NCBI GenBank assembly: GCA_963825135.1
Contig: CAWGRW010000009.1
Span: 1,248,001 to 1,312,000 of the forward strand
Source of the DNA: an uncultured bacterium
GTDB taxonomy: Bacteria > Desulfobacterota_D > UBA1144 > Nemesobacterales > UBA2774
Reading direction: 5' to 3'
DNA: 64,000 bases
The position numbers and the translations under genes were made by a program. Below, piece by piece: positions 41,540 through 60,362 of the stretch. Numbering within the stretch: position 1 is the first letter of the stretch; every line of letters starts with the position of its first letter. Under the pieces are notes generated by a model, which was not told the DNA's origin, searched no databases, and saw nothing but the letters and a program-made list of their open reading frames with translations.

Positions 41540-41568
41540 TTGACAAGGGGTATAATTTGTGATGTAAT
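41540..41568 (+). promoter_or_regulatory. Sigma70-type promoter P1 of the surface-protein operon
   Basis: TTGACA (41540-45), 17 bp spacer, TGTAAT (41563-68) with TGn extension. Confidence 0.65.
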
Positions 41569-41643
41569 TGCTATAATTTTGAAGGAGGAAGGAGTATGGT
41601 TTCATATCTCCGGAATGTACATATTTGCGCTGGAGAAAAGGAC

Positions 41644-41672
41644 TTGACAACGACTTCTTTCTATGTTGTAAT
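41644..41672 (+). promoter_or_regulatory. Sigma70-type promoter P2 of the surface-protein operon
   Basis: TTGACA (41644-49), 17 bp spacer, TGTAAT (41667-72) with TGn extension. Confidence 0.65.
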
Positions 41673-41839
41673 TCTGAGCAGTTGTGAGTTGTATCGGGTA
41701 TTCGTTTATAGTAAGGAGATGGAGCTTGCCTGAATAAACCGATTCCCGCACATTTTTGCTATCTCGAAAATTTAGAAGGAGGATGTTTATGACTAAAGGA
41801 AATTTGATTAACAATACCAAAACAAGGAGGAAAGGTTCA

Positions 41840-42835
41840 ATGCTACAGGATAGTTTATCCAAAATTAAGTACTTTTTAGTGCTTGCTGTTCTTTTAATAA
41901 TACCGATTCGGGCAATGGCAGGCGATGGTATTTTCGATGAGCTTATTGATCAGACCGACACTGGCGCTGACAGGCTCATTTACGCCTTCGATACGGTAGG
42001 CAGGGAAACATACATACAGGTCACCAACACGTCGGACTCGACAGTAAGCATTCATGTTCAGGTCTTTGAGGCCAGCGCGGACTGTTTCGAATTTGACTTC
42101 GACGAATGTCTGACCCCTGGCGATACCATCGTATGGAACGTGGAAACCGATTTTCCGGGATCCCCTGACCTTTCCGACGCCAATGGTTTCGTTGCTATAT
42201 CGAACGACGATGAAGGGCTTTGCTCAGCGGGACCGAGCAACTCTTTGATCGGCATGTTCAGGATAATAGACGACAGCGGATATGAATACAGAACGAACGC
42301 GGCCGCCAGTGAGGATCGCACCAGCTTCGATGAGCTCTATGATGTCCTTAACTTCAACGACGTGAACGGTAATAACCTTTCGGACGTAATCGGCATCACG
42401 TACGTTGACATCGATTCTAACACGGTGTTCGCTTCTAATGGTATCGCGACCCTGTTTGGAGACATCAACGACCCCGCGCAGATTTTGATATTCGACGGGA
42501 ATGAGAACGCTAATTCATGCAGCCCGATAATTTTCGCCTGCACCGATAATTATGGTATAGACAACTCTATTCCTAGCTCTCAGGGCAACAATGTCGTTTG
42601 CAACACGAGCAAGCTCTCCGACTCCAACGATTCCGGCTGGCTGTTTATGCCGTACATCACCAAGGTATGCTTTAATTCGGACGGTGAGGACGTAGATTGT
42701 CCGGAAGATCCAATATACTTCGTTGGATTCCTTGGGCTCAACAACGGCGACGGAAGCGGTTCGATGGATTCCTGGATATCCGTGCGCGACGAGTTGCTGC
42801 AGATTGAACCACCTTCGGCAGGCACTGCGGAATAG
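41840..42835 (+). CDS. Secreted acidic Cys-containing protein (putative surface-layer protein), paralog of the next gene
   Basis: AAGGAGG SD, Sec signal peptide (...IPIRAMA-G), Asp/Asn-rich and Lys-poor mature region; alternative ATG at 41789. Confidence 0.85.
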   Translation: MLQDSLSKIKYFLVLAVLLIIPIRAMAGDGIFDELIDQTDTGADRLIYAFDTVGRETYIQVTNTSDSTVSIHVQVFEASADCFEFDFDECLTPGDTIVWNVETDFPGSPDLSDANGFVAISNDDEGLCSAGPSNSLIGMFRIIDDSGYEYRTNAAASEDRTSFDELYDVLNFNDVNGNNLSDVIGITYVDIDSNTVFASNGIATLFGDINDPAQILIFDGNENANSCSPIIFACTDNYGIDNSIPSSQGNNVVCNTSKLSDSNDSGWLFMPYITKVCFNSDGEDVDCPEDPIYFVGFLGLNNGDGSGSMDSWISVRDELLQIEPPSAGTAE

Positions 42836-42904
42836 GTTGATAATATGAGGTTGATAATGATGAATATCGGATGCATAACAAATTTAAAAAAGGAGGATAA
42901 ATAA

Positions 42905-44920
42905 ATGATAAGCAAGTTAAGGTTTTCATTGATCGCTGTAATATTGCTTGTCCTCTTCGGTTTCGGTTTTCAGAACCAGGCTAAAGGGCAAGTGGGAAAT
43001 AATGACCAGTTTTGTCCGTTCGTCGAGGTAACTGAGGGATGGCTCAAAACTACGGATATCACTGCACTTACCCCCCTTAATTTCTCGGCTGCTTTGATTG
43101 GCACCGTGGAGGGTGTGGGCGGGCATGTAGTGGCTGGTATGGATTGGCAGCATGTTGATTTCACCAATTTTGATCAGCCGACGCCTACCAACGAAACTGG
43201 CGCCCAGCTGGTTACCCCATGGTCCCAGGCTGAGGGCAACGATACGTTCCTTCAGGTAACGAATGCTGAGGATATTGGTACCTGGGTTCACGTTCGTTTA
43301 CTCGACAGTAATTGCATAGAAATCAGAAACTTCTGCGATTTTTATACAGGTGGCGATACCCACGTGTATGATTTCGGCGACCTCGTCACGAATAATGGCG
43401 ATACGCCGGACGATGGCGTGCTTCAGGGCAAAGAAGGTTTCCTGACCGTTACCGCGGTTGATGACTGTCCTTCTCCCGACCAGGCGTTTTCCTGCGATCC
43501 CCTTGATGGCGGTTGCTGGCAGAACAAGTTGGCCGGTACGGTGCAGATCGTAAACAGCTCCCACGATTCTTACGGGTTTAACACCTATGCCAGAAGGGGC
43601 GTTTGCTTCGACCAGGAAATCCTGACCGACGTCAACCTTATAGACAACGGCAGCTTCCAGAATGGGTCCCTTCCGGATTGGAGCCAGGAGCAGGGCGGAA
43701 ATGAGGCCAGCGGAGTGATAACGTCAAGCGGTATTTCACCGAGCATCCCGATTCCCCCGTGTCAGGGTCCCGATTGCGGTGGCGATGCGGATCTTTTCCA
43801 GGCCTTTGCGGCTTCTGACAGCAACAACCCGAGCGGGTTTTACGGGCAAAACGCTACTCCAACTAGCATACTTGGCTGGCTGAACGATCCCGATTTGATT
43901 AACTCGGGTGACAATGATACAAACGTAACAGTCGTTCAGAGTAACCAGTTCACGCCTCTCGCTGACCCGGATGCGGTAGATAATACAAACGATGTGTTAT
44001 ATGACCTCCGCTTCCTGTCGGCTAACGACCTGCTCTTTGACTGCGACAACTACGTAGCCGTATGTCTGATCGATATTACCCAATGGCTTGTTAACCCGGT
44101 TCTTAATACGCCGTCCTTTGTTGAATGCGACTGCTATAACCGTAACGGCGCTGGACAGATTACAGGCGGGACTTGCGGCGATGTAGGCGACGACAACTTC
44201 AGTTACGCGCTTGGTTCCCATGAGTTCCAGGGCGGCGCTTCCTCACTCATCAGTGGCGAGCTGAGTACTGCGAGCGACTTTTCTACCTACGTGGTCCAGT
44301 TCATAACCGCACAGAAGGTGAATGACGGTTGCGACAATTCGGCCTTCCCGCGCGGCGATACCGGAGCGTTGGTTGATAACTTCAGGAACGTTGAAACCAT
44401 CCAGACATTCGATGAGTGCGATGGCGTTCTCGACGGAGATTTCAACGCGTTCTTGAATGACTTCCTCCCGACGGAGTTCGCTGGTCAGTTCAACGTGATC
44501 GACGGCAATACTGCCGGCGGTGATGCGATACTGATCAACTTCGCCGACGAGTATGTGCCGAATTACAGGACGCTCGCTGCTACGATATCCGCAAACGTCG
44601 GTATCTTCGATACTAACGAAGACTTCCAGAGCTGCGGCGATGTAGTTGCTTGCTACCTCAGGCTGGGAATAGACGCGGATATACCGGTTAACCCGGTCAA
44701 TCCGACGACGCCTCCGCCGTCCACGACACCTCCGCCGTCCACGACACCTCCGACGATTGGACCGACACCGACACCATCACACAACAACAACAGCGGTGGA
44801 AGCTGCGCGATTGCCGGCAGCCCGGTTCAGCTCGGAACAGCGTTTGCTAACGTGCTTATACCTCTGGTACCGGTAGCCTTCGCGTTCGGCGTAAGGGCAG
44901 TAAGAAGAAGAAAGAAATAA
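42905..44920 (+). CDS. Secreted acidic surface protein with Thr/Pro linker and Cys-containing C-terminal sorting signal
   Basis: AAGGAGG SD, signal peptide, acidic Cys-rich body, TTPPPS repeats, and SGGSCAIAG + hydrophobic helix + RRRKK terminus. Confidence 0.88.
   Translation: MISKLRFSLIAVILLVLFGFGFQNQAKGQVGNNDQFCPFVEVTEGWLKTTDITALTPLNFSAALIGTVEGVGGHVVAGMDWQHVDFTNFDQPTPTNETGAQLVTPWSQAEGNDTFLQVTNAEDIGTWVHVRLLDSNCIEIRNFCDFYTGGDTHVYDFGDLVTNNGDTPDDGVLQGKEGFLTVTAVDDCPSPDQAFSCDPLDGGCWQNKLAGTVQIVNSSHDSYGFNTYARRGVCFDQEILTDVNLIDNGSFQNGSLPDWSQEQGGNEASGVITSSGISPSIPIPPCQGPDCGGDADLFQAFAASDSNNPSGFYGQNATPTSILGWLNDPDLINSGDNDTNVTVVQSNQFTPLADPDAVDNTNDVLYDLRFLSANDLLFDCDNYVAVCLIDITQWLVNPVLNTPSFVECDCYNRNGAGQITGGTCGDVGDDNFSYALGSHEFQGGASSLISGELSTASDFSTYVVQFITAQKVNDGCDNSAFPRGDTGALVDNFRNVETIQTFDECDGVLDGDFNAFLNDFLPTEFAGQFNVIDGNTAGGDAILINFADEYVPNYRTLAATISANVGIFDTNEDFQSCGDVVACYLRLGIDADIPVNPVNPTTPPPSTTPPPSTTPPTIGPTPTPSHNNNSGGSCAIAGSPVQLGTAFANVLIPLVPVAFAFGVRAVRRRKK
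44711..44752 (+). repeat. 18-bp tandem repeat encoding the PPPSTT linker
   Basis: CCTCCGCCGTCCACGACA twice (44711-28, 44729-46) plus partial CCTCCG. Confidence 0.9.
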
Positions 44921-44934
44921 GATGAATTCAAACT

Positions 44935-45029
44935 GCGGGGAGGCGGACTTAAGGTCTGCCCCCTTGCTTTATTTATGAAGTAGATTTAGCCGGGAGAATT
45001 AGGAAACTAGCTCTCCCGGCTTTTTATTT
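44935..45029 (+). terminator. Two tandem terminator-like hairpins after the surface-protein operon
   Basis: GCGGGGAGGCGGAC/GTCTGCCCCCTTGC + TTTATTT, then AGCCGGGAGA/TCTCCCGGCT + TTTTATTT. Confidence 0.75.
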
Positions 45030-45120
45030 GCCCCCTGGTCAAAAAGCGGCAGCCTGTAAATTTGCTCTTCGCACCGTCTCTGGATAATATTTAACAATCC
45101 CCGTTACACGGCCTGATATT

Positions 45121-46260
45121 ATGAAGACCAATAGATGCGTGCTTATACACTATGGAGAGCTGTCTCTTAAAGGCAGGAACAGGGGCGATTTCGAATTGAG
45201 GCTCAGGGACAATATCGAGAGGATAGCCGGGGGAGCGGTCAGCAGATACAGGGGCTATTTTGTGATGCAAGGCGGGGAGCCTGCTTTGCTCGATAAGGTC
45301 CCGGGCATATCCTGGTACGCCGAGGCCTCTGTTGCCGGTAATGACCTCGATTCGATTATAGAGTTGGTAAGGGAAGAGCTCGGCCGCATGTTCGCGGGGG
45401 GGCGCCCCCCCCTCAGCTTCGGGGTTTTTGCCCGGAGGCCTAATAAGAAGTTCCCGCTTACTTCGGGAAAGGTCGCGGAATTATTGGGAGATGAAATTAT
45501 TAATAAATACGGGTTTACTACCGATCTTCGAAATCCGGACATTAGTGTCTTTCTCGAGATAGCCGATAGAACCTACGTCTTTTTCGAAAAAAAGCAAGGA
45601 CTGAGGGGATTCCCAACGGATGTCAGCGGGCATGTCTTGTCCTTAATATCCGGGGGCATAGACTCCCCCGTATCTTCTTATCTCATGATGAAAAGGGGCT
45701 GCAGGGTCGATCTGATTCATTTCCACGTATTTAGCGACAGCGGTCACGTGGCCGCCACTAAAATGAGCGGAATTTTCCGGAAAATCAATGAATTCCAGAT
45801 CGGCACCCGTGTATATCTTGTGCCCTATTACGCTTTCGAATCCGCCCTGCTCAGGCTCGACGGAACAGGCGGGAACGAGCTCGTCGTCTTCAGGAGGTTC
45901 ATGGTGGCGGTCGCGGAACGAATAGCCCTCGCGAACGGTTGCGCGGCGCTTGTAACCGGAGACAGCCTGGGCCAGGTCGCCTCTCAAACCATAGAAAACA
46001 TAACACTTGTAAAAGAAGCTGTCTCTCTGCCGATTTTCCAGCCGCTCATTACATACGACAAGCAGGAAATAGTGGATTATGCGAAGAAGCTCGGAACATA
46101 TGACTTATCTATCGAGCCTTATAAGGATTGCTGCTCGATTGTCTCGGAGAACCCGAGGACCAGGGCGAGGCGGGAGCATGTTCTGGATATTGAGAGGGCC
46201 ATGGACATTCAAAAAGTGATCACGGAAACGCTTGAGATGGTAACGCTTTATGACTTATAG
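45121..46260 (+). CDS. thiI: tRNA 4-thiouridine synthase ThiI (short form, no rhodanese domain)
   Basis: YGELSLKGRNR, THUMP domain, PP-loop SGGIDSPV, GDSLGQVASQT and PYKDCC. Confidence 0.93.
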   Translation: MKTNRCVLIHYGELSLKGRNRGDFELRLRDNIERIAGGAVSRYRGYFVMQGGEPALLDKVPGISWYAEASVAGNDLDSIIELVREELGRMFAGGRPPLSFGVFARRPNKKFPLTSGKVAELLGDEIINKYGFTTDLRNPDISVFLEIADRTYVFFEKKQGLRGFPTDVSGHVLSLISGGIDSPVSSYLMMKRGCRVDLIHFHVFSDSGHVAATKMSGIFRKINEFQIGTRVYLVPYYAFESALLRLDGTGGNELVVFRRFMVAVAERIALANGCAALVTGDSLGQVASQTIENITLVKEAVSLPIFQPLITYDKQEIVDYAKKLGTYDLSIEPYKDCCSIVSENPRTRARREHVLDIERAMDIQKVITETLEMVTLYDL

Positions 46261-46282
46261 AAGGGTATCGTCAATAATGTTA

Positions 46283-46828
46283 TTAATGCTTTTTGCTAAT
46301 TTTAGGAGCTTGCGCATAGTCCATGAACCCCCTCGGCTGCGGCGGCCCGTCGTAGGAGAGCCTTTTCCACACCGTGGGGTCTGAGTAATAGAATCGAATG
46401 ACTACTCTCCGGAAGCTCTCGAGAAAGCTTCTGTTGTCCACCCTTATATGCTTAATCAGCGTATCGATTTCTTCCCTGTTTTTAAGTGAGTAAAATGGCG
46501 TCTTAAATTTTTTCCTGGAGATCGCGTCCAGGTTCCACAGACCGGCGTCGAAAAAGCTGGCTGTGCCTTTGCTTGATCTGACAAAGGACATCATCTTGTC
46601 CTCAATCCCTATACTCACGCATCCGGGCACTAGCGATTCCGCCAGTTTTACCATATTCTTTTGTGTTGTTTCATTAAACACCGTGTACCCTTTTTTGACT
46701 TCGAACCCGCCCTTGTTCAGGTCGGTCTCGGCGAAGGCTGCGGGCCCGGCTCCCGCAATTACCTCGCTCCCGATGAGTCCCGTTGCAACGGTTTTTAAGA
46801 ACTTCCTTCTTGAGCTTTTCTTGTCCAT
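46283..46828 (-). CDS. Tat-exported gluconate-2-dehydrogenase subunit-3-like protein
   Basis: Twin-arginine SRRKFLK signal ending in AFA; C-terminal FYYSDPTVWKRLSYDGP. Confidence 0.72.
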   Translation of the reverse strand: MDKKSSRRKFLKTVATGLIGSEVIAGAGPAAFAETDLNKGGFEVKKGYTVFNETTQKNMVKLAESLVPGCVSIGIEDKMMSFVRSSKGTASFFDAGLWNLDAISRKKFKTPFYSLKNREEIDTLIKHIRVDNRSFLESFRRVVIRFYYSDPTVWKRLSYDGPPQPRGFMDYAQAPKISKKH

Positions 46829-46839
46829 ACCGGTTCCGT

Positions 46840-47661
46840 TTATTCCTTCACGATTTCGATAGTCATGCCTTTCTCTTTCGCCAGCTCTTTAGCGTATTGA
46901 TCGTAGGCTTCTCCCTTTCGTCTGGCTTTGATTATGTATACGATTGAATCCTTCACGCTGTCAAACGGCGTTACTTTCGCGTCGAGTATCTCGTATACGC
47001 CGAATGTGCCGTCCGGATTGGCTACTACCTTGGACAGAGAGCCCGCTTCTTTTACATCGAAGTACCTGTTCATTTTTTTATTGAAACCCAGATCCTTCAC
47101 TGTTAACTGTGAAGCCGGACTCGATAATTTTTGAGCGATTTCCTGAAAATTCTTGCCGTCCCGCGCCATTTTTATAATCTGATCGCCGAGGCTCGAATCC
47201 GTGAACTGAATTCCCTGGACGCGCAGATTTGTGTAACCTAACCCCTTGGCGGTATTATAATAATTGAGAAGGTCCTCGTCCGTTATTTCCTTTTCGGGGG
47301 GCGAGGTCTGGGTGTATTTATCCTTTAATTCTCTTACCACGAGACTCATCTCGTATTCCCTTAACTTGTCCTGATATTTGTTTTCCAATCCCTCTTTTAG
47401 TCCTTCCTGATAGATAATTTCATCGGTAACGAGTGATTCTACGGACCTTCCGTTGAGCTCGTCCGCGTATATCGGGACGCCGTTTACCCGTGCGACTACC
47501 TTTCCGCTTTTTTCGGGTTTATTTAGTCCGATCTCCGCCCCTCCATTCTTTCCCAGGCTTGCTTTATCAGGGCTGTCAGCCGGGCATTCCTTGGTTCCGG
47601 ATTGATCGCATGCCGATAAAAATACTAAGCATATCAATAGAATCGGCAGGAATTTCTTCAT
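46840..47661 (-). CDS. Parvulin/PpiC-like foldase lipoprotein
   Basis: ATG at 47661 after AAGGAG, lipobox LSAC, VVARVNGVPI, EITDEDLLNYY, DLGF and PFDSVKDSI. Confidence 0.75.
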   Translation of the reverse strand: MKKFLPILLICLVFLSACDQSGTKECPADSPDKASLGKNGGAEIGLNKPEKSGKVVARVNGVPIYADELNGRSVESLVTDEIIYQEGLKEGLENKYQDKLREYEMSLVVRELKDKYTQTSPPEKEITDEDLLNYYNTAKGLGYTNLRVQGIQFTDSSLGDQIIKMARDGKNFQEIAQKLSSPASQLTVKDLGFNKKMNRYFDVKEAGSLSKVVANPDGTFGVYEILDAKVTPFDSVKDSIVYIIKARRKGEAYDQYAKELAKEKGMTIEIVKE

Positions 47662-47714
47662 ATTTTTCTCCTTTTTATGGCCGGGCGGGATAAGCAAAAT
47701 GTATAACTTATAAA

Positions 47715-47743
47715 TTGACACAAAGCAATAGTTTCATTATATT
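47715..47743 (+). promoter_or_regulatory. Sigma70-type promoter of the GMC-glycosyltransferase operon
   Basis: TTGACA (47715-20), 17 bp spacer, TATATT (47738-43). Confidence 0.6.
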
Positions 47744-47760
47744 ATCAACCGCTCAAAGCT

Positions 47761-49407
47761 ATGCCTCCTAAAAAAGAAAAATACGATTGCCTCGTCATCG
47801 GCTCCGGCCCGGGAGGGGCGCCGTTTGCCTGGAAGCTCGCTTCGAAAGGCATGAATGTGCTTATGCTGGAGGCAGGCCCGCGTTATGACCCGTATAAAAG
47901 TTATGCGCTGGATGAAACCGATTGGGAAACAAAGGCTTTCCCTATAATCAAAAAAATTCGTCATACGTTCGGCAAAAAGCAGCCGCTTAGTGCTAAATAC
48001 GAAAACCTTCGGTCCTGGAACAAAGCCTCCGGAAAGCTCAATGACAGTCAGGAGAGAAACTATATAAAATACCATCAGATCTCGGGCGTGGGCGGGACGA
48101 CACTTCATTTTCAGGGCGAAGCCCAGAGGCTTAACGAGAAAGCATTCCGCATGAAGAGCCTCTTCGGCGTGGCCGTGGACTGGCCTATACAATATCAAGA
48201 CCTGGAGCCCTATTATTGCGAAGCGGAGGGCATCGTAGGGGTAGCGGGGCCCGACAATATCCCGGATCGTCCCAGAAGCAAGCCGTATCCTTTAAAGCCC
48301 CATAAGTTGAGCTATGCGAGCACGATTGTGGAAAAGGGCTGCAGTAAGCAGGGCCTCGACCTCATACCGAATTCTGTTGCCATACTATCGGAAGCCTATC
48401 GGGACGCCCCTCCCTGTAATTACTGCAACGGATGCGTTTGGGGTTGTCCCCGGAAGGATAAAGGCAGTGTCGATGTGACGTTCGTTCCTCTCGCTGAAGG
48501 TACCGGTAACTGTGAGATACTGGATAATGTTTTCGTTACGCGTATAGAAACCGAGAATAAGGGCGGAAAGAAAGCAAGGGGAGTCGTATATTACGACAGG
48601 AGCAGGAAGGAGCATTTCGTCGCCGCCGATTATATCGCCGTGGCGTGCGGGGCAGTCGAGACTCCGAGACTGCTCTTGAACTCCGACATAAACGGTAACG
48701 GGCTCGTCGGGAAGAATTTTATGGAGACCGTCTTTTACGAGGCCACGGCCTTTCATCCCGAAAGGTCCGATTCCTATCGGGGCATACCCATGGACAGCAT
48801 TCTATGGAATTGGAACACCCCGGATCCGAAACGAGGCTTCTCCGGAGGACTCAGAATGTTTCCTACGGCCGGGAGTGCGTTGGGCCCCTTGAATTATTCC
48901 TTGCGGTATTTCGACGGATGGGGCGAAGATTATATAAGCCAGGTGGAGAAGTGGTTCGGACACGCGATCTCGATGGGGGGTATAGCCGAGTTTTTTCCAA
49001 ACAAGGACACTTTTGTTACTCTCGATCCCAAAACGAAAGACGAATTCGGCCTCCCGGTAGCGAAAATTCAATCGTTTCTCGGTGAGTCCGAATTAAAGAG
49101 TCTTGAATTTATTGCCGGCAAATCGAAGGAGATTTTGAAGGCCAGCGGCGCCGTAGACTTTGTCGAAGAAATCAGCGCTTATGATTTCTTCTCGGCTACC
49201 CACGTTTTCGGGACGTGCCGGATGGGAAACAAACAAGAAACGTCCGTTGTAGATTCATCCCTCAGGGTCCACAATATCCCCAATTTGCTGGTAACCGACG
49301 CAAGCGTTTTCCCTACATCCGGCGGCGGAGAAGCCCCTTCACTCACTATTGAGGCCCTGAGCTTGCGTGCGGCCGACCTTCTATTGAAAGACATCAAGAA
49401 AGGTTGA
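47761..49407 (+). CDS. GMC family FAD oxidoreductase
   Basis: IGSGPGG, VGGTTLHF, Cys cluster CNYCNGCVWGC, GAVETPRLLL, HVFGTCRMG and DASVFPT; no signal peptide. Confidence 0.92.
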   Translation: MPPKKEKYDCLVIGSGPGGAPFAWKLASKGMNVLMLEAGPRYDPYKSYALDETDWETKAFPIIKKIRHTFGKKQPLSAKYENLRSWNKASGKLNDSQERNYIKYHQISGVGGTTLHFQGEAQRLNEKAFRMKSLFGVAVDWPIQYQDLEPYYCEAEGIVGVAGPDNIPDRPRSKPYPLKPHKLSYASTIVEKGCSKQGLDLIPNSVAILSEAYRDAPPCNYCNGCVWGCPRKDKGSVDVTFVPLAEGTGNCEILDNVFVTRIETENKGGKKARGVVYYDRSRKEHFVAADYIAVACGAVETPRLLLNSDINGNGLVGKNFMETVFYEATAFHPERSDSYRGIPMDSILWNWNTPDPKRGFSGGLRMFPTAGSALGPLNYSLRYFDGWGEDYISQVEKWFGHAISMGGIAEFFPNKDTFVTLDPKTKDEFGLPVAKIQSFLGESELKSLEFIAGKSKEILKASGAVDFVEEISAYDFFSATHVFGTCRMGNKQETSVVDSSLRVHNIPNLLVTDASVFPTSGGGEAPSLTIEALSLRAADLLLKDIKKG

Positions 49408-49414
49408 ATATCTC

Positions 49415-50968: not shown

Positions 50969-51009
50969 TTAATGGCCCGATAATTTATTAAATCCGATGG
51001 ATATAAAAA

Positions 51010-51714: not shown

Positions 51715-53029
51715 AAATGGGGTGCGTCTGAAGAACCCTTATGTTCGATTTTCTTTGATTCTCGTAGCGGGTTTTGCCCTCAGAGTATTCCTTTCACAAT
51801 TTCTCACATACGGTCCCGATTTCAGCGTCTGGATTGGTTGGGGCAGCGAAATCTCTTCGGTAGGTTTCGGAAATTTTTATGATAAGTTCTGGTGCGATTA
51901 CATGCCCGGATACCTGATCATACTCTGGATTCTCGACCACCTGCACAGCGCTTTCCCCGGGCTCTCGGTCGATATACTCTTCAAGCTCCCCTCGAATCTT
52001 GCGGATCTCGGTATATCTATACTCATATTCTATTCGCTCAGGTTGATCACGACGAATAAAAATGCGATGACAGCGTCGATAGTATATTTATTTAACCCCG
52101 CGTCGCTCGCGAATTCGACATTCTGGGGGCAGGTCGACTCATTCCATGCCCTTCCGATATTACTCTCTATATATCTCGGGCTTAGAAAGAAATATATACT
52201 TTCGGGCGTCTTTGCGGCGCTGGCTTTCATGATCAAACCCCAGAGTATAGCAATATTCCCCCTGATAGGTTTCCTTGCGCTGAGACCGTTAATCCGTGAC
52301 AGGCGGAAGCTAACCGTCAGGTCTTTTTTGCCCTCCTTCGAGCTTGCGGTAACCGTTGTGTTGACGTCGATAGCGGTCACGCTTCCCTTTATATGGGGCG
52401 GGATCGATTCAGTTAATTCTCTGTTCACCGGGCCGTTTGCACTTATAAAGGAAAGATTCGATGCGGCTTACGGGCAATACGCGTACACGTCTCTCAACGC
52501 GTTTAATTTCTGGGGCGCATTTTTAATGTGGGAAAATGATGACATCAAGCTCCTGGGCGTATCATATAAAATGCTGGGAACATTGATGTTCGGTACGGCC
52601 TATATTTTTATTGCGGGCCTCCTGGTCAGGTTCGCCATCCTTATGAAGAATGATGAAAACGTGGACTATGCCTATCTGATATTTCAGTCGGTGACGCTCA
52701 TCCTCTTTACGCTTTTCCTCTTCGTCACACGCGCCCATGAGAGGCATCTTCTTCCCATGATTGTATTTTTTACGCTTATAGTATTCCGTTCTTGGATATT
52801 CTGGTATTTATATGCTATTGTGTCGGGTGTTTATACGGCTAACATGGTTTATTCTTACATCCAGCTAACAACACAATATAAGGGGATACCAGCGGATTAT
52901 CCCATGTATTTTATTCCGGGATTGTTTTTCCTTTACCTGTTAGCCTATATCATTATTTTTTGGGATTTTGTCGTAAATACTGTTAATTATAAGAATTCGT
53001 CTGAACCTCAATTGCTCCTGACACGATAG
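51695..53029 (+). CDS. GT-C fold membrane glycosyltransferase
   Basis: Polytopic; first loop PDF...CDYMPGY, WGQVDS, IKPQ, NAFNFW and HERHL. Confidence 0.75.
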   Translation: MNLRTIENGVRLKNPYVRFSLILVAGFALRVFLSQFLTYGPDFSVWIGWGSEISSVGFGNFYDKFWCDYMPGYLIILWILDHLHSAFPGLSVDILFKLPSNLADLGISILIFYSLRLITTNKNAMTASIVYLFNPASLANSTFWGQVDSFHALPILLSIYLGLRKKYILSGVFAALAFMIKPQSIAIFPLIGFLALRPLIRDRRKLTVRSFLPSFELAVTVVLTSIAVTLPFIWGGIDSVNSLFTGPFALIKERFDAAYGQYAYTSLNAFNFWGAFLMWENDDIKLLGVSYKMLGTLMFGTAYIFIAGLLVRFAILMKNDENVDYAYLIFQSVTLILFTLFLFVTRAHERHLLPMIVFFTLIVFRSWIFWYLYAIVSGVYTANMVYSYIQLTTQYKGIPADYPMYFIPGLFFLYLLAYIIIFWDFVVNTVNYKNSSEPQLLLTR

Positions 53030-53040
53030 AATATAGATAT

Positions 53041-54351
53041 ATGCCGCCGCAATTATTTCTCAGGAAATATAAAATCGAGCTTTTTCTCGCGCTGATTCTG
53101 GTGTTCGGTTTCGGAATAAGGCTGTACCGTCTGGCCATCCCTGATAGTTATTATTTTGACGAGATATATTTCGCGTTCACCGCACAGGAAATGGCTAAAG
53201 GACACAGAGCGGCCTGGGAAAGCTATAACAAGGCGCCCGAAGACCTTGCCTACGAATGGACCCATCCTCCTCTCGGGAAAGAGATAAGCGCGCTCGGGAT
53301 AATGATTTTCGGTAATAACACGTTCGGCTGGCGGTTCTTCCAGGCCATATTCGGCGCTCTCGGCGTGCTGTTCATTTACCTGCTCGGGAAGAACTTGTTC
53401 GACAGCAAGGTCGCGGGTCTGATAGCGTCCTTGCTCTACAGCTTTGAGTCATTTTTCTTTGTATTGAGCCGTATTAGCATGGTCGACATTTTTATTGCCG
53501 ACTTTTTGATGCTCGCGTCTCTTTTTATAGTAAAGTATGCGAGGACAAGGAAGAACAAATTCCTCGTATTGGCCGGATTCTTTTGCGGGGCGGGAATGTC
53601 GGTAAAGTGGAGCGGAGTGTATATTACGGAGTTCCTTGCCGGCGTGGCGCTGTTTCTTGTTTATTATTTCGAGGTGTACACCACGTCCGCCCGCGACAGG
53701 GAGTTTCTATCCTCTCTTTTGAGGATAATCCCGAGAATGTTCCTGGCGTTTGTGATTGTTCCGTTGCTGGTCTATCTCGCCACGTACATACCGTTCTTCT
53801 ATTACGGGAATTCATTCCATGATTTCATCACTCTGCAGGGGAATATGTACGGGTACCACGGAGGGGTAACACAAACTCATCCCTACCAGTCCGCATGGTG
53901 GCAATGGCCTCTGATGCTGAGGCCTGTTTATCTGCATTTGCAGGACCTGGGAGACGGTATGAGGGCCCATATTTATTTAATCGGTAATATCTTCATATGG
54001 TATACGAGTTTGTTATTCTTGATTTTGGGGATAATCCGTGTGGTGAGGAAGGAAACGCCCTCTCTGCTCTTTGTTGTGCTGAGCTTCTTTGCATACTGGC
54101 TCCCCTGGGCTTTTTCCCCGAGAAAGATTATCTTTCTGTATCATTTCCTTCCTTCATTAGTATTCTTACTATTGGCTACCACTTATTTTCTGACTGAGTT
54201 GTGGAATAGCTCCGGAAAAGGGAAAATTTTCGTGATCGTATATTTCTGTATAGCCGCCGGTATGTTTTTCTATTATTATCCCATTCTGGCCGCATTACCC
54301 ATCGGGGAATCGGATATTGACCGTTATCTTTGGTTGAGCTCCTGGAGATGA
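53041..54351 (+). CDS. Polyprenol-phosphate-mannose protein O-mannosyltransferase (PMT/GT39-like)
   Basis: YFDEIYF (DE motif), HPPLGK, FGWRF, SRISMVD, KWSG, HPYQSAWWQWPLMLRP and FLYHFLP. Confidence 0.88.
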   Translation: MPPQLFLRKYKIELFLALILVFGFGIRLYRLAIPDSYYFDEIYFAFTAQEMAKGHRAAWESYNKAPEDLAYEWTHPPLGKEISALGIMIFGNNTFGWRFFQAIFGALGVLFIYLLGKNLFDSKVAGLIASLLYSFESFFFVLSRISMVDIFIADFLMLASLFIVKYARTRKNKFLVLAGFFCGAGMSVKWSGVYITEFLAGVALFLVYYFEVYTTSARDREFLSSLLRIIPRMFLAFVIVPLLVYLATYIPFFYYGNSFHDFITLQGNMYGYHGGVTQTHPYQSAWWQWPLMLRPVYLHLQDLGDGMRAHIYLIGNIFIWYTSLLFLILGIIRVVRKETPSLLFVVLSFFAYWLPWAFSPRKIIFLYHFLPSLVFLLLATTYFLTELWNSSGKGKIFVIVYFCIAAGMFFYYYPILAALPIGESDIDRYLWLSSWR

Positions 54352-54429
54352 TGCAATCGGTTTTCAACCTGTAACTATCGCTGTTGATATGCAGTGTCGG
54401 GGTTATTACCCTGTGTCCCGGATCATGCT

Positions 54430-55047
54430 ATGAAGAAACTCGATCTAGTCGCCTCAATCATCGTCGGCGTCATTATATCTGTTTTTGTAATCGCGATATT
54501 GAGCACTCTCAAGGATGAGCTCCACATCCGGTATTTACCCTACGACGTTATCTGGCCCGCCTTTCTGATAATAATCCCGGCGTTCGTCGTGCTGTGGGTA
54601 TATATATCCTCGCACCTCGGAGCGAAGTGGAATATACTTTTTCAATTCGGGAAATTCATACCGATAGGTGTGTCAAATACGGCAATCGATTTCGGAGTTC
54701 TCAATTTTCTGATGTTCGTTTCGGGAGTTCATAAGGGGTATCTGTTTTCTGCTTTCAAGGGTATTTCGTTTGTCTTCGCGGCGGCAAATAGTTATGCCTG
54801 GAACAAGTTCTGGACATTCGAGAGCAGGGAAAGGGACGGGATGGGAAAGCAGTTCGTTAAATTCGTCATTGTCTCCGCTATCGGTTTTGCGCTGAATGTT
54901 CTCGTGGCGTCTTTCATTGTGAATGTCTTGCGGCCCGTAGGCGGCCTTTCTCCTGTATTATGGGCAAACGTAGCGGTATTCGCATCCATTGTACTCGTAA
55001 TTATCTGGAATTTCTTTGGCTATAAATACCTGGTTTTTCAAAAGTAA
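54430..55047 (+). CDS. GtrA family protein (putative lipid-linked sugar flippase)
   Basis: [29 protein letters not shown] and [14 protein letters not shown] at 54430. Confidence 0.88.
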
Positions 55048-55048
55048 A

Positions 55049-56263
55049 TTAGTAGCCCGTCCATCCGAATTTATATATCCAGAGCACGCCCCAAAGGTTT
55101 ACCAGTATCCCGATAAGGATCAGGATTTTGTGATGCCATCTGATGTCGGGGCCTATCCCCTTAACCGTTAGGAGAAACAGGAAAGGATAAAAGTCCATTG
55201 CGAACCTGTATCCGAACTGAGAGAACCCCCATGTGCCGTGACAAAAGTTCACCAATGCTATCAATACGATAGAGAGCCAGCACCCTATTGCCAGCCTGTT
55301 TCTTATGCCGGCAAAAAAAGAATAAATGAACGCCGGGGTAGTAATCCAGATCGCCATGCCGTTCCAGGAGGGCCTAAAATATGGAAACTCGCCGGTAAAC
55401 TTGGGAAGCTCCCAGAATATGATTTTTAAGTGTCTAGGTATGTACGTAATGTCGAATATACCCTTCTGGTACCACGGTTCTTCGAGTATTCCGGGTATCA
55501 GGTAATAGGAGATATCAAACGGCGTGTGAAATCGCAGCAGGTTATAGATTGAATTTAATAGTATGAAAATTCCCGCTCCCGCCCCAAGCCAAATAACGGG
55601 CTTAAGCCGTATCCTGTCGTAAAAGCTGCGGTCTTGCCCCTGACTGAACCATTGGTCCGAGTACATGGTTACAAAGAACGGAAACGATAGTATTGTCGGG
55701 AGACGGGTCCAGTAGGACGCCCCCAGGGCCGCCCCTGTATAAAACGGGTGAGATCTATATAAGGTCAGAAGGATCGCGATAAACAGTAACGTCGCGGATA
55801 CGGTGTGGGAGAACATCCAGACCCCGCCCGCGGTCGCGACCCACCAGTGTATAGTCCCGAAACCGAACATGGCCGCGGTCCAGACTTGAATACCTCTGTT
55901 TTTTGAGATCGCCCTCGCGGCTAAAAAGGCTAGAGATACGTTAAGACTGCCGAGGAAGATTGAAATCAGGGTCTGGTTTGTCGAAAGGCCGAATATGGCA
56001 ACTACGGGCAATATCAATACAGCCGGAAACGGCGGGGGTACGATATAGTGCCTGCCCTCGAAAGGGACCAGTTCCTGCCACGGAACGTCTTCGGTGAGAT
56101 ATAGCCTTCCGTGAAGGATAGCGTCGGCCAGTCTTACGAAATTGTCATACGGAGTGGGGGCGTGCTGCGTGAAAAAATATACGGTAAATGACACCGCGAA
56201 TATGATTAGAAAAAGGATGAGAGTCGTCTTTTGGCTGTCTGCGTCAGGCTTTACGGGTTCCAT
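55049..56263 (-). CDS. GT-C-like polytopic membrane protein (paralog A)
   Basis: LADAILHGRLY, PPPFPA, FGFGTIHW, YNLLRF and QFGYRFAMDFYPFL. Confidence 0.7.
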   Translation of the reverse strand: MEPVKPDADSQKTTLILFLIIFAVSFTVYFFTQHAPTPYDNFVRLADAILHGRLYLTEDVPWQELVPFEGRHYIVPPPFPAVLILPVVAIFGLSTNQTLISIFLGSLNVSLAFLAARAISKNRGIQVWTAAMFGFGTIHWWVATAGGVWMFSHTVSATLLFIAILLTLYRSHPFYTGAALGASYWTRLPTILSFPFFVTMYSDQWFSQGQDRSFYDRIRLKPVIWLGAGAGIFILLNSIYNLLRFHTPFDISYYLIPGILEEPWYQKGIFDITYIPRHLKIIFWELPKFTGEFPYFRPSWNGMAIWITTPAFIYSFFAGIRNRLAIGCWLSIVLIALVNFCHGTWGFSQFGYRFAMDFYPFLFLLTVKGIGPDIRWHHKILILIGILVNLWGVLWIYKFGWTGY

Positions 56264-56284
56264 CTCGAATAGGGCCCTGCCGAT

Positions 56285-56989
56285 TTATAGAAACTTATAC
56301 GCGTATAGTTTTACAACATGGTAAAGGTAATCAAGGATGACTCCGCTGTTTAACTTCGTCTCCCCGTATATCCTGTCCCGGAAAACAATCGGTACTTCAA
56401 CCACTCTATCGTATTTTCCTCTGACCAGGATCTCCAGGGCTATTTTAAATCCCTTCGGGCTTAATTCGGCGTTTTTTATTACTTCCCGTTTCAGGAAAAA
56501 AAATCCGGACATGGGGTCCTTAACCTTCGTAAGGCCGATTACGGCGAGAGTCGCGAGTCTGGAGGAAATCTTTCTGCTCAGAGCCCAGTCCCCGGATTCG
56601 CCCTTATCGACATAACGGCTCCCTATCGTTATATCCGCTTCCCCGCTTAGTATCGGCGCAATTAGTTCGGGTATTTTTTCAGGCGGATGGCTCAAGTCAG
56701 CGTCCATGACCCCGAGTATCCCGCTTTTAGACATGCTGAAGCCGCTTAATACGGCTGAAGACAGACCCCTTTCGCTGAGTCTCCTCAATACTTCGAGCCC
56801 GCTGTACTTTTCCTTGAGTCCTTCGGCGACTTTCCATGTCCCGTCGGGAGAATCGTCGTCAACCACGATTACTTTCCCGTCCAGGTTCGATTCGCGGAAA
56901 ACGCTGAATACCCTTTCCAGCAGAATAGGCAAATTCTCCGATTCATTATACGTTGGTATTACGAGCGTTATATCCATTTCACTGAACAT
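56285..56989 (-). CDS. Polyprenol monophosphomannose synthase (GT2, DPM1/Ppm1-like)
   Basis: PTYNESENL, VDDDSPDGT, RGLSSAV, MDADLSHPP, GSRY, DPMSGFF and GFKIALE. Confidence 0.9.
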   Translation of the reverse strand: MFSEMDITLVIPTYNESENLPILLERVFSVFRESNLDGKVIVVDDDSPDGTWKVAEGLKEKYSGLEVLRRLSERGLSSAVLSGFSMSKSGILGVMDADLSHPPEKIPELIAPILSGEADITIGSRYVDKGESGDWALSRKISSRLATLAVIGLTKVKDPMSGFFFLKREVIKNAELSPKGFKIALEILVRGKYDRVVEVPIVFRDRIYGETKLNSGVILDYLYHVVKLYAYKFL

Positions 56990-57075
56990 AATTTTACCAT
57001 TAATATGAATCGATAATATGAATCGGCAAATAATAATACTATCAAGGCCGGGCGGACGTTAAGGTGCACAAATTC

Positions 57076-58179
57076 TTAAAAAGCCCAGCTGAACCTTATA
57101 AACTGTATCAGGAGCAGTGCATAGAGCGAAAGTGAGATAAATACAATCAGATAATTCACGGCCCTGTGTCTGCCTAATACGGCTAGGGCAATGAAAATCG
57201 GGAGCATCGATAGGGTGTATCTCGGGATGCTCAGCCAGAACCCCGTCGAGATAACTAAAAGCCAGGTCGCCAGCGCGTACAGGCAGTATGAAAGACGTAT
57301 CCGGAAAAATGAATATATAATAAGAGCGAGACCGAGAATCGCGAACAACAGCTCACCCCATCCCGCCAGCATTGCGTCTCTGGGTTCCCTATAGCGTATG
57401 CTTTGCAATGCGGACATTAACCCTTTGTAAGGGAAATCTAGGTGTTTTGACCAGTGCTTTTCCTGTATTTCCAGAAACTTGAACGGGTCCCCGAACGTGA
57501 CGTAGTTTATTGCGAGATAGAAAATAATACCGAGCGCGATTATGGAGAGCCAGAGTATGTTTTTCCGTACGTTCTTTAATTGGAATCCTTTCTGGTTCAG
57601 GTACTCGATTACGAGCACGGGGAGCAATATGATCCCGGTTACCCTCGTCGCCGCTGCCAGCATTCCGATTAATCCCGCAAGCGCCCATTTCTCCTTTCTC
57701 GCGTAATAAAAGCTGGCGATCACGAGGGCCATGTACAGACTTTCGGTATATGCCGAATGGAAGAAAAAGGCTGTAGGGAATATGGATAAATATATTACGG
57801 ATCTGAATGAATCTTCGGCGTCGCAGTCTATCCTTACGAGCTTGAAGAAGTAAATTATCATTACGGCGAATGCCAGGTTCGATACGAGAAGAGCCGAAAG
57901 TAAATAGTCTCTGAATACTACGGAAAATATTTTGATCATAAACGGATAAAGCGGAAAAAATACGATTTGCAGGTGCCTTCCTTCCGCCGTCGAGCTCGTA
58001 TATCCGTACCGCGCGATTTCTGTGTAGTGCCGGGTATCCCACACACTCCAGATCGCAACGATCGAATCGGGATATTTGTTTTCGAGGATTATGTAGGCTA
58101 CATATGCAAGACCGAAGGTTCCGATTATCGAGATTACGGCGATGAGTGTTAAGTCCCTCAGCTGGGGGTTGAACTTCAT
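57076..58179 (-). CDS. PIG-V/Gpi18-like GT-C mannosyltransferase
   Basis: WDTRHYTEIARYGY, FFPLYP, FPTAFFFHSAYTESL, ATRVTG and SIPRY. Confidence 0.82.
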   Translation of the reverse strand: MKFNPQLRDLTLIAVISIIGTFGLAYVAYIILENKYPDSIVAIWSVWDTRHYTEIARYGYTSSTAEGRHLQIVFFPLYPFMIKIFSVVFRDYLLSALLVSNLAFAVMIIYFFKLVRIDCDAEDSFRSVIYLSIFPTAFFFHSAYTESLYMALVIASFYYARKEKWALAGLIGMLAAATRVTGIILLPVLVIEYLNQKGFQLKNVRKNILWLSIIALGIIFYLAINYVTFGDPFKFLEIQEKHWSKHLDFPYKGLMSALQSIRYREPRDAMLAGWGELLFAILGLALIIYSFFRIRLSYCLYALATWLLVISTGFWLSIPRYTLSMLPIFIALAVLGRHRAVNYLIVFISLSLYALLLIQFIRFSWAF

Positions 58180-58297
58180 TCTTTACCGGTCCTGTGTTCC
58201 GTCAATTTGTCCGTCTCGTCTCTTTTACCGGAATCCGCAAATCGTATATTATGTTAATCTAATTTTGGGAAATATTGAATATTCTTGTGATGAGGCA

Positions 58298-59530
58298 ATG
58301 AAGACCGTCGTTTCGATTTATGACAGATATCCCCGCCTGATAACCGCATTCGTTTTTTGTGTAATCGGGTTCCTTGTATATTTTTTAACCGAGCCCCGCG
58401 TTTCTGACCCTTTTAATTACTTTAACTATCTCGCCGACGCGTTCCTCCACGGAAGGCTATATGTGACGGATACGCCTTTTTACTTTGAGGAGCTGATTCA
58501 CAGGGCCGGTAAGTCTTATGAGATTTACCCGCCGTTCCCCGCCCTGCTGCTCATGCCTTTTGTAGCCCTCTTCGGTGTGGAGTTCAAACAGGTGTTCCTG
58601 TCTTTTTTCCTGGGCGGTCTGAATATTTCAATTATATACCTGATAATGACCGGGCTCACGGCCAAAAGGGAGCTCCGTATATGGATGACGGTCCTCTTCG
58701 GGTTCGGAACCATACACTGGTACACGGCCACTGTAGGCTCCGTCTGGTACTTCGCCCAGATTACGTCGATGACGCTGCTGCTGCTGGCGGTTTACTGCAC
58801 GCTCCGCGCCCAAAGGCCTTTATTAATCGGGCTTCTGCTCGGGGCTTCGTACTGGTCCAGATTGCCGACCCTGCTGACGCTTCCGTTTTTCATAATAATG
58901 CTCTCCTATGACGGACTTCCGATGCGGGAAAGGGGCAGGAGCATCGCCGGATTCAGAATTCGGCCGCTCATACTCGTATGCGCCGGCGCCGGCATTTTCG
59001 TGCTGCTAAATTTCCTGTACAACTATCTCCGGTTCGGCACTCCGTTAGATACGGCGTACGTCATGCACGCGATCTCTCCGGCCAAGGAAAAGATTTCACC
59101 CTGGTTCAACAAGGGGCTTTTCAGCCTCTCATATATCCCCTATCACCTTTACATCTTTTTTCTACAGCCGCCGGTGTTCATAGAAAAATGGCCTTATATA
59201 ATCCCTTCCAAGGTCGGCCTCTCGGTTCTTATTACGACACCCGCCTTCATATTTGCTCTGTTTGCGGGAATAAGAAACAGACTCTCTATTGCCTGCTGGG
59301 CGGCAATTATACCCACGGCGTTTCTTATCTTTATAAAAAGCGGGACTGGGTGGGCCCAGTTCGGATACAGGTATGCCCTGGATTTTTATCCATTCCTCTT
59401 TCTTCTTACCGTAAAGGGCATCGGGGAGAACTTGAAATGGTATCACAAGGCCTTGATAGTTCTGAGCGTGCTGGTCAACCTTTGGGGCGTATTGTTCTTC
59501 AATAAATTCGAATGGTACAAGCTTTATTGA
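58298..59530 (+). CDS. GT-C-like polytopic membrane protein (paralog B)
   Basis: LADAFLHGRLY, YPPFPA, FGFGTIHW, YNYLRFG and QFGYRYALDFYPFL; ATG at 58298. Confidence 0.7.
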   Translation: MKTVVSIYDRYPRLITAFVFCVIGFLVYFLTEPRVSDPFNYFNYLADAFLHGRLYVTDTPFYFEELIHRAGKSYEIYPPFPALLLMPFVALFGVEFKQVFLSFFLGGLNISIIYLIMTGLTAKRELRIWMTVLFGFGTIHWYTATVGSVWYFAQITSMTLLLLAVYCTLRAQRPLLIGLLLGASYWSRLPTLLTLPFFIIMLSYDGLPMRERGRSIAGFRIRPLILVCAGAGIFVLLNFLYNYLRFGTPLDTAYVMHAISPAKEKISPWFNKGLFSLSYIPYHLYIFFLQPPVFIEKWPYIIPSKVGLSVLITTPAFIFALFAGIRNRLSIACWAAIIPTAFLIFIKSGTGWAQFGYRYALDFYPFLFLLTVKGIGENLKWYHKALIVLSVLVNLWGVLFFNKFEWYKLY

Positions 59531-59596
59531 CCTGACACCCGGCGTTATGTATTTTAAGACTGTAAATTTGAGAACTTACGGTCCCTCACCGTTTAA

Positions 59597-60208
59597 ATGG
59601 CAAAAGCCTACAATATTCGTAACTACTTCATACCATTAATTATTTATGTCGTTGTGATAACCCTCATCCTGGTTATGAAATTTCTTGTTCCGTGGACTTA
59701 CGTTATTTCCATTTCAGCTGTCCTCATGCTCTCCGTGCCTTTTATTCTAAAATCTGATCTGAGTGACCTCAGGTGGGACCGGAGGGGGGTGCTTATCGGC
59801 ATTGCGGCATCGATAGCGGTCCTCCTCATTTATATATCCGTGCTCGCGGGCTACGGCCTCTATTCAGGAAAATCCCTGATGTTTCAGAGGCTTTCATATA
59901 CCTTCATACTCGCCCAGCTCCTCCTGGTGGCCCTTCCGGAAGAGGTTTTTTTCCGCGGCTTTCTTCAGCAGAGGCTCGGCAACACGCTCTGGGGGATAGC
60001 GGCCGTAAGCCTCCTGTTTGCGTTCGGGCACTTCGTCACTCTGTGCCTGGGGGGCGGGCACGGCTTATCGGTGTGCTCTCAGGCCGTTCTCACGTTCTTC
60101 CCTTCCCTGGTTATGGGCTACCTCTACATGACTACCGGAACAATCTGGGCGAGCGTTATCTTTCATTTCCTCGCCAATCTGGTCCATATCTCGGCGGGTT
60201 TTTCTTAA
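59597..60208 (+). CDS. CPBP/Rce1-family glutamic intramembrane protease, myxosortase-like
   Basis: QLLLVALPEEVFFRGFLQ (EExxxR), LFAFGH (FxxxH), FFPSL and FHFLAN (HxxxN). Confidence 0.85.
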   Translation: MAKAYNIRNYFIPLIIYVVVITLILVMKFLVPWTYVISISAVLMLSVPFILKSDLSDLRWDRRGVLIGIAASIAVLLIYISVLAGYGLYSGKSLMFQRLSYTFILAQLLLVALPEEVFFRGFLQQRLGNTLWGIAAVSLLFAFGHFVTLCLGGGHGLSVCSQAVLTFFPSLVMGYLYMTTGTIWASVIFHFLANLVHISAGFS

Positions 60209-60362
60209 TAAGACCGGTAAACCCTGTCAGGCTATATGAATTTTGAAGCCGCCCGGGGAGGGTATTTCGCACCCGCCATATTTCCTGTTGGTCCGGATTC
60301 AGTTAAAATACTGTAATCACTTTATTTCTTGGAGTGTTATAATTTACGGATCGAGTGATCTT

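Follow-up and report, generated by a model that had tools for sequence, protein, structure and literature searches.

A Cys-Tailed Candidate Surface Protein, a Candidate Sorting Protease and a Separable Module of Putative Glycosylation Genes at One Locus of an Uncultured Bacterium

In the model for MYXO-CTERM proteins, MrtX cleaves its clients in a Cys-dependent manner, lipidation of the Cys is presumed to come first, and the type II secretion system (T2SS) carries out transport (available sections of PMC11980579). As the accessible text of 10.1101/2023.06.07.544157 describes them, MYXO-CTERM transmembrane helices contain no proline or charged residue, and the myxosortase gene lies in no client operon; the same text reads the Thr/Ser-rich linker that precedes the tail in the CGP-CTERM/MrtA system and in the PGF-CTERM/archaeosortase system of S-layer glycoproteins as a site of O-glycosylation. 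GT39 enzymes act on linker regions in actinobacteria and have been little studied in other prokaryotes (PMC11727336, in its available part). For the ASRAH (ASRT/TM1070) superfamily, sugar binding has been proposed; its extracellular members occur as dyads or tetrads, and one family is linked to a glycosyltransferase gene (PMC2739507, in the portions at hand). Here we compare with these systems a locus at positions 41540-60208 of a 64,000-nucleotide stretch of DNA from an uncultured bacterium (the window), in which a candidate surface protein with a Cys-bearing C-terminal tail (the target, or subunit B), a CPBP-family protease and a set of putative glycosylation genes lie together.

The genes of this span are real, but they form two layers instead of one pathway: a sorting system and a dispensable module. 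A sequence-only reading of the window had proposed that one pathway folds, glycosylates, cleaves and anchors the target. The couplings of tail to protease and of target to a GT39 enzyme hold across relatives, but a single dedicated pathway does not, since the protease occurs independently of the GT39 enzyme. We therefore favor, as the probable reading, two separable systems: a housekeeping myxosortase-like protease and an all-or-none module whose likely product is a glycosylated surface protein of two subunits. The source genome (3.13 Mb, 94% complete) is designated G000, and counts below refer to a comparison set of 85 genomes of its order, each at least 90% complete. Named homologs of the target and the protease are labeled Candidatus Dadabacteria or, more broadly, Thermodesulfobacteriota/Deltaproteobacteria.

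The Cys-bearing tail and its candidate protease

The target is encoded on the plus strand at 42905-44920 (671 amino acids [aa]) and has the architecture first read from its letters: a hydrophobic N-terminus, a Thr/Pro/Ser linker (T601-S625), the motif Ser-Gly-Gly-Ser-Cys634, a transmembrane helix and a terminal RRRKK. Its tail (44783-44917, plus strand; Cys634 at 44804-44806, then a spacer, the helix and the basic run) has a mean identity of 91% across 65 homologs (minimum 74%), whereas near full-length homologs share 40-69% BLASTP identity overall; such conservation is far from chance. The tail had been taken for a sorting tag, and a profile of it, run across G000, found five tagged proteins at 46.7-81.8 bits against a background of 7.2 bits, the five being themselves among the seeds of that profile. 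The tail apart, they are unrelated; besides the target, it is carried by a subtilase, a TolB-like propeller and two proteins with no family assignment. In both tail sets (A2 and A7) the tail is tripartite and its Cys invariant; the target's tail has a single Cys, and there are two prolines inside its helix.

MYXO-CTERM, with its proteases MrtX, MrtC and MrtP, is alike in combining a tripartite, invariant-Cys tail on many unrelated exported proteins with a T2SS and with one single-copy CPBP enzyme bearing EExxxR and HxxxN. In G000, GspD scores above cut-off within an operon that reads by eye as a T2SS. The tails here nevertheless differ in the Pro within the helix, in the single Cys and in scoring below TIGR03901: none of 10 exceeds any NCBIfam CTERM cut-off, the nearest models being MYXO-CTERM TIGR03901 (18.5 bits against a cut-off of 20) and JDVT-CTERM (17.7 against 27), and the target's own tail has no TIGR03901 match. 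Synerg-CTERM/MrtS and JDVT-CTERM/MrtJ share with this locus a Ser/Gly-rich run ending in one Cys and an Mrt-type CPBP protease, but here the spacer before the helix is longer, there is no DP motif, and each genome has several to dozens of clients. The JDVT-CTERM signature (a DP motif nine residues past the Cys and one client beside the enzyme) is absent from these tails, as is that of Synerg-CTERM (no spacer after the Cys), a spacer being visible in the tail alignment; the best score against Synerg-CTERM TIGR04564 is 11.5 bits, with a cut-off of 22.5.

The protease gene (59597-60208, plus strand) closes the locus. G000 has two CPBP genes, and Mrt_core (NF040914) is matched solely by the one in the window, at 72.6 bits against a cut-off of 100; five orthologs score 56.6-67.6 bits. 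Both motifs of a glutamic protease, EExxxR and HxxxN, are conserved without change in all 16 orthologs, and the segment TFFPSLVMGY is similar, as judged by eye, to the MrtX segment RLSVFFPALIFGW that the accessible text of 10.1101/2023.06.07.544157 singles out. Besides falling below Mrt_core, the enzyme differs from the described Mrt proteases in its lineage and in lying about 15 kb from a client, beside glycosyltransferase (GT) genes. Since the system appears to work like MYXO-CTERM/myxosortase but fails its scores and helix features, we regard it as a lineage variant of the MYXO-CTERM/Mrt kind.

The protease is found in 74 of the 85 genomes, invariably as one copy. Tag profile A2 matched 76 genomes before correction; G073 and G083, negative with A2, are tagged under a second, genus-adapted profile (with which G039 was not retested), and a match in G052 was rejected because no Cys is present in it and the open frame continues beyond it. 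Tag and protease are then both present in 73 genomes, both absent in 7 and discordant in 5, so that the co-occurrence expected from the sequence is well supported (80/85 concordant). Four discordant genomes (G005, G088, G089 and G026) are in 140-350 contigs; the fifth, G068, is in 7 contigs and 90% complete. Joint absence is confined to two lineages, family f6 and G025. Family f9, whose 13 genomes are about 1 Mb in size and were searched for the protease alone, lacks it as well. Co-occurrence and single copy number together are what the working criteria of Haft ask of a sorting protease and its tag, and we think it very likely that the CPBP enzyme processes the Cys tail. By analogy with the described systems, this one enzyme likely serves the whole set of Cys-tailed proteins in the cell, trimming them and assisting in their anchoring.

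Could the tail instead be handled by a rhombosortase or by exosortase H (XrtH), or be a plain membrane anchor, with the CPBP enzyme doing an unrelated job? The tail motif is Gly-rich, recalling the Gly-Gly of rhombosortase clients, XrtH is present in G000, and G068 has 16 tag matches with no PF02517 match. We consider this very improbable. Rhombosortase (TIGR03902) has no match in the 94% complete G000, although the model matched 14 of 14 controls; XrtH occurs in only 24 of the 85 genomes and has about 50 clients of its own; the tail Cys is invariant; and tag and protease are jointly absent in 7 genomes. XrtH and its associated membrane protein lie at G000:C9:944910-945377 and make up a second, separate system for sorting by C-terminal tails, which is mostly restricted to family f1. 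Its clients in G000, counted by eye and many of them on contig C10, have tails that we take to be of the IPTL type.

No match to the GT39 enzyme is found in 39 of the 74 protease-positive genomes, among them the single-contig G015, with 7 tagged proteins, and G032, with 60. Since protease and glycosylation genes vary independently, the protease is best seen as a housekeeping enzyme for all tagged proteins. Independent variation of tag, protease and GT-C genes, which had been named in advance as fatal to the single-pathway proposal, thus applies to the protease and the glycosylation genes and not to the tag and the protease. In G032 (contig C1; 2.0-Mb genome, no module), many of the 60 Cys-CTERM matches belong to large proteins (800-2100 aa), with repeated subtilases among them.

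The putative glycosylation module and its distribution

The gene at 53041-54351 (plus strand) encodes a protein O-mannosyltransferase-like enzyme (PMT) with both GT39 domains above cut-off (PF02366, PF16192), an invariant FDE and matches to yeast Pmt1/2/4 structures with E values down to 2e-48; with 115 against a cut-off of 800, it falls short of the NCBIfam Pmt equivalog. Upstream on the same strand are two further core genes: GT2a (51010-51714; PF00535 and synteny), likely a polyprenol-phosphate sugar synthase, and GTC1 (51695-53029), a GT87/Mannosyl_trans4-like GT-C candidate that shares one open frame with PMT in G028 and G041 and partly in G054. Downstream is a GtrA-family flippase candidate (54430-55047, plus strand; PF04138). 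The variable part comprises GTC3 (55049-56263, minus strand), which has no family match and whose GT-C call rests on 48% identity to GTC5; GT2b (56285-56989, minus strand; PF00535); a PIG-V/PMT_2-like GT-C (57076-58179, minus strand; PF04188 and PF13231 above cut-off); and GTC5 (58298-59530, plus strand), LA_3751-like (NF047440, E=1e-11, below cut-off). The two GT2 enzymes, GtrA, the CPBP protease and five polytopic GT-C candidates announced by the sequence-only reading are thus all in place, but only PMT and the PIG-V-like protein among the five exceed Pfam cut-offs; GTC1 and GTC5 match GT-C families below them. GT content beyond the core varies among genomes. Elsewhere in G000 (C9:1807938-1813462 and 1898111-1899711) there are three more PMT_2-like membrane GT genes and a second GT2-GtrA pair (GtrA 60% identical). 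A different GT39 clade, with about 25% identity, lies beside GtrA and GT2 genes at L073:8321-9718 (G033) and L100:7573-8958 (G030); in G033 it adjoins the protease gene, and replacement by a foreign PMT is possible.

Actinobacterial and fungal O-mannosylation (Ppm1/DPM1 with GT39 Pmt; available parts of PMC11727336 and PMC5882110) offers a GT2 lipid-sugar synthase, a DE motif, both PMT domains and a Thr/Ser-rich linker as likely acceptor. The present case differs in its setting, a lineage with secretins and a T2SS, and in the clustering of the GT39 gene with a candidate substrate, extra GT-Cs and a dehydrogenase. The target's linker (44705-44779, plus strand), retained in homologs, is the joint-top Thr+Pro 30-mer of G000 (2763 crudely called genes) and has the most Thr among the best 15 Thr+Pro segments listed. 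It is a likely O-glycosylation site, and PMT probably glycosylates it. Its position is that of the linkers in CGP-CTERM/MrtA and PGF-CTERM proteins, although both of those systems are archaeal and have other motifs, and the PGF protease family is unrelated.

It had been stated that thiI alone interrupts the cluster. This proved incorrect: the span also holds a twin-arginine translocation (TAT)-exported Gluconate_2-dh3 subunit, a GMC oxidoreductase and an FG-GAP/ASPIC protein, overlooked at first, and these genes are part of the module. The TAT-exported protein (46283-46828, minus strand; PF13618 at cut-off) reads as the small subunit of an FAD sugar dehydrogenase, and its gene adjoins the GMC or the parvulin gene in all module loci where this stretch is seen. 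The GMC protein (47761-49407, plus strand) is closest to the large subunits of fructose and glucose dehydrogenases (8xcn, E=7e-49); no cytochrome gene stands beside it in the window's gene list. Next comes a secreted FG-GAP/ASPIC-UnbV repeat protein (49415-50968, plus strand; domain match). The GMC ortholog and FG-GAP genes co-vary as tightly as PMT. The predicted parvulin lipoprotein (46840-47661, minus strand) is there as a gene, with an LSAC lipobox read by eye, but is below all cut-offs (best E=8e-5); its relatives match PrsA-type models down to E=8e-11. The bystander is thiI itself (45121-46260, plus strand; TIGR00342 above cut-off).

The target family occurs in 31 of the 85 genomes, PMT in 36, the GMC ortholog in 31 (at least 61% identity; two genomes that have just a 44% paralog count as negatives) and FG-GAP in 30, a count that misses G007, where the gene is split. 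Target and PMT are both present in 30 genomes, both absent in 48 and discordant in 7, all of the last in at least 140 contigs; their expected co-occurrence is thus supported (78/85). Among the 60 genomes assembled into at most 100 contigs, the target with its untagged neighbor (subunit A), PMT and GMC are without exception present together (18 genomes) or absent together (42 genomes; if genus g14 is set aside, the numbers are 18 and 10), and 34 of the 42 module-negative genomes retain the protease. Five module-negative genomes were tested for PF16192, and none has it, while the control gave its match. Going by taxonomy labels, about five lineages lack the module (G015, G042, G032 with G025, g14 and f6).

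The order target-(thiI)-TAT-parvulin-GMC-FG-GAP-GT2-GTC1-PMT-GtrA-variable GTs-CPBP-nadE is conserved in families f1 and f7, and parts of it recur in f2, f4 and f8, so that module genes are neighbors in five families. In G015 protease, GtrA and thiI remain and the genes between are lost, thiI having been retained despite loss of the module; in G032 the protease gene abuts ctpA. In G030, an assembly of 9 contigs, all module parts are kept on four different contigs, which argues that co-retention is not only physical linkage. XrtH, the sole unlinked control, is missing in 7 of the 18 module-positive genomes, unlike the module genes.

Two alternatives bear on these data. The first is the dedicated pathway, in which protease, GT-Cs and parvulin all serve the maturation of one S-layer protein. 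It would explain why the target-to-protease block is contiguous throughout f1 and in several f7 genomes; why the protease is present in 31 of 31 target-positive genomes; and why GT genes lie beside it even in rearranged loci (G027, G033). Yet 43 of the 74 protease-positive genomes lack the target family and, as noted, 39 lack PMT; tags sit on many proteins, 60 in G032 and five unrelated ones in G000; there is no S-layer evidence; and, since the genes for the parvulin, the TAT-exported protein, GT2b and two of the GT-Cs run in the opposite direction (five minus-strand genes in all), the span consists of several divergent transcription units and is no single operon. We judge this alternative improbable. 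The second accepts the sorting system but has the GT cluster decorate something else (a glycolipid, lipopolysaccharide/lipid A or other Pro/Thr-rich envelope proteins), with A-B (A being the target's partner, described below) and the dehydrogenase as a sugar-binding and sugar-oxidizing unit and the co-variation a product of linkage and genome reduction. G000 does contain other exported Thr/Pro-rich proteins, the GMC protein resembles respiratory sugar dehydrogenases, A and B carry predicted carbohydrate-binding folds, GT content past the core is variable, and XrtH is likewise absent from all module-negative genomes. However, GT39 enzymes that have both PMT domains modify proteins, the target owns the top-ranked Thr-rich linker, module parts are co-retained when dispersed (G030), and the protease-adjacent PMT of G033 is of a different clade. 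This second alternative is unlikely, but it deserves more weight than the first.

The paired surface proteins

Upstream of the target is subunit A (41840-42835, plus strand; alternative start 41789), a secreted, untagged protein of two predicted beta-sandwiches whose described paralogy with the target was confirmed (26% identity over 148 aa, E=2e-6). A terminator-like hairpin with a T run (44942-44960, plus strand; consensus match only) closes the A-B pair. The AlphaFold2 (AF2) model of A has a pLDDT of 85.9, and its N-domain aligns with 1nc7 at a VIA Z of 12.0 (rmsd 2.4, 103 residues), followed by ASRT at 8.3 and others at 6.0 or less; it is predicted to have a TM1070/ASRT-type (ASRAH) beta-sandwich fold. 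In the model of B (pLDDT 88.1), an insert at about residues 239-500 aligns with a carbohydrate-binding module (CBM) at a VIA Z of 12.5 (rmsd 3.0, 136 residues), which points to a CBM-type jelly roll set into the core. For the core itself, homology to A suggests the fold.

Three strands at the end of A match three at the start of B (profile E=0.0019, against 0.09-0.88 in five shuffles), and the two subunits look like circular permutants of each other. Of 221 family proteins given (78 target homologs plus 143 further members), 218 could be classified: the permuted module stands before the core in 109, only after it in 89 and in neither place in 20. Tagged proteins have the module-first, permuted order in 89 of 92 cases, and a single one of the 89 module-last proteins is tagged. 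In P0077, P0078, P0301, P0306 and P0334 a module-first core is followed by Ca-binding-type or other repeats in place of the tail. P0199, considered as an A-B fusion, was rejected: a tail already closes its first half, and a second signal peptide comes next.

The family numbers 479 representatives at 50% clustering. A and B have no sequence match in Pfam or NCBIfam, a PDB sequence search with the family profile was empty, Foldseek with whole B gave TM values of at most 0.2, and the ESM Atlas returned only unnamed clusters, at 0.80, for B. With ASRAH, then, the locus shares the predicted TM1070 fold of the A N-domain and no sequence match; it differs in having a Cys-CTERM anchor replace the lipobox and in its permuted-looking partner with a CBM-like insert. 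The genes occur as adjacent tandem pairs, with many repeats in G011 and four in the G027 loci, a pairing from which an A-B heterodimer is inferred. G038 has about 20 family matches, apparently of the untagged type. Arrays on contig C1 of G011 (e.g., 712266-725146, 553615-562218 and 2442942-2462571) hold about 17 full-length B copies, mostly paired with A, with near-identical linkers and tails and divergent bodies, which looks like a variable surface-antigen repertoire.

No test gave support to the description of the target as S-layer-like: its codon-bias rank is 431 of 1515 (with a crude reference set, in a genome with weak bias), and there is no S-layer entry among the fold matches listed for A and B. 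That A and B form a true S-layer is possible but doubtful, and they could with equal probability make up a coat or a lectin-like adhesin.

Promoter- and terminator-like sites across the region are no more numerous than in shuffled sequence, an Rfam search of 40700-60300 gave zero matches, and three RNA runs from the same study yielded only five short, divergent pieces. Between ctpA and gene A there is a 1-kb intergenic stretch (40753-41755), very GC-rich at about 40960-41320, with no Rfam match. Beyond it, at 37756-40752 on the minus strand, is a long S41 C-terminal peptidase of the MXAN_5808 family (TIGR03900 above cut-off), the second myxobacteria-like envelope gene at the locus; in many genomes it and the A-B pair are arranged divergently, and in G032 it adjoins the protease gene.

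Proposed mechanism and significance

By analogy to MYXO-CTERM and MrtX, Sec would export B, and the tail would hold it in the inner membrane; Cys634 would be lipidated by some enzyme, the CPBP protease would remove the helix, and the T2SS would take B to the surface. If GT39 biology applies, GT2a and GtrA would provide a lipid-linked hexose, probably mannose, while B is still tethered; PMT would attach it to the Thr/Ser-Pro linker beside the tail, and GTC1 and the variable GT-Cs would extend the glycan. The parvulin would aid the folding of these Pro-rich, Cys-rich chains, and untagged A would get to the surface as a partner of B. The least secure element concerns the FG-GAP protein and the FAD dehydrogenase of the periplasm, which may act in the module, most likely by oxidizing the glycan or a pair-bound sugar.

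Several observations weigh against the two-system reading. No biochemical step has been observed, and the mechanism is read from genes and predicted folds. The A-B permutation match is modest (47 columns, probability 14%). Pending a closed assembly, G068 stands against the rule that tag and protease go together. In G032, tagged subtilases bear Thr/Pro linkers and no PMT was found, so such linkers do not require this enzyme. The 100-contig and 61% GMC cuts were both set after seeing the data, and G030 is PMT-positive through the divergent enzyme (25% identity), itself a profile seed. Because nadE and ctpA are equally stable flanking neighbors, synteny alone proves little. The module-negative genomes are mostly small, so that shared loss may partly reflect genome reduction; XrtH is absent from all 42 of them, and 32 of the 42 belong to one genus, in counts made by taxonomy labels, without a tree.

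A bolder extension, to which we give little credence, holds that the heterodimer of permuted ASRAH-fold subunits builds a lipid-anchored glycoprotein coat, in which the permutation freed the C-terminus for the Cys tail, the stalk is O-mannosylated in the fungal/actinobacterial manner, and a dedicated TAT-exported FAD dehydrogenase oxidizes the glycan to charge or cross-link the layer. If true, it would mean a myxosortase-anchored, O-mannosylated and enzymatically oxidized surface layer in an outer-membrane bacterium.

In the literature that we covered on Dadabacteria envelopes and CTERM proteins, diderm O-mannosylation and MYXO-CTERM glycosylation, there is no description of this system; subscription journals and the Haft supplement (genomes, clients) lie largely outside that coverage. 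By analogy, the two-system reading likely extends a recently described Cys-CTERM anchoring route to a new lineage, Dadabacteria, and adds to the known cases a further Cys-CTERM/Mrt system with a natural presence/absence test. The short enzyme (203 aa) and its substrate, a pair expressible in E. coli, could probe how the Cys becomes lipidated. The module points to GT39-type protein glycosylation beyond actinobacteria and eukaryotes, with the likely substrate encoded nearby, and it connects surface-protein biogenesis with an FG-GAP protein and with a periplasmic sugar dehydrogenase that had lacked an explanation. Taken together, these genes provide a first concrete model of the cell surface for an uncultured lineage.

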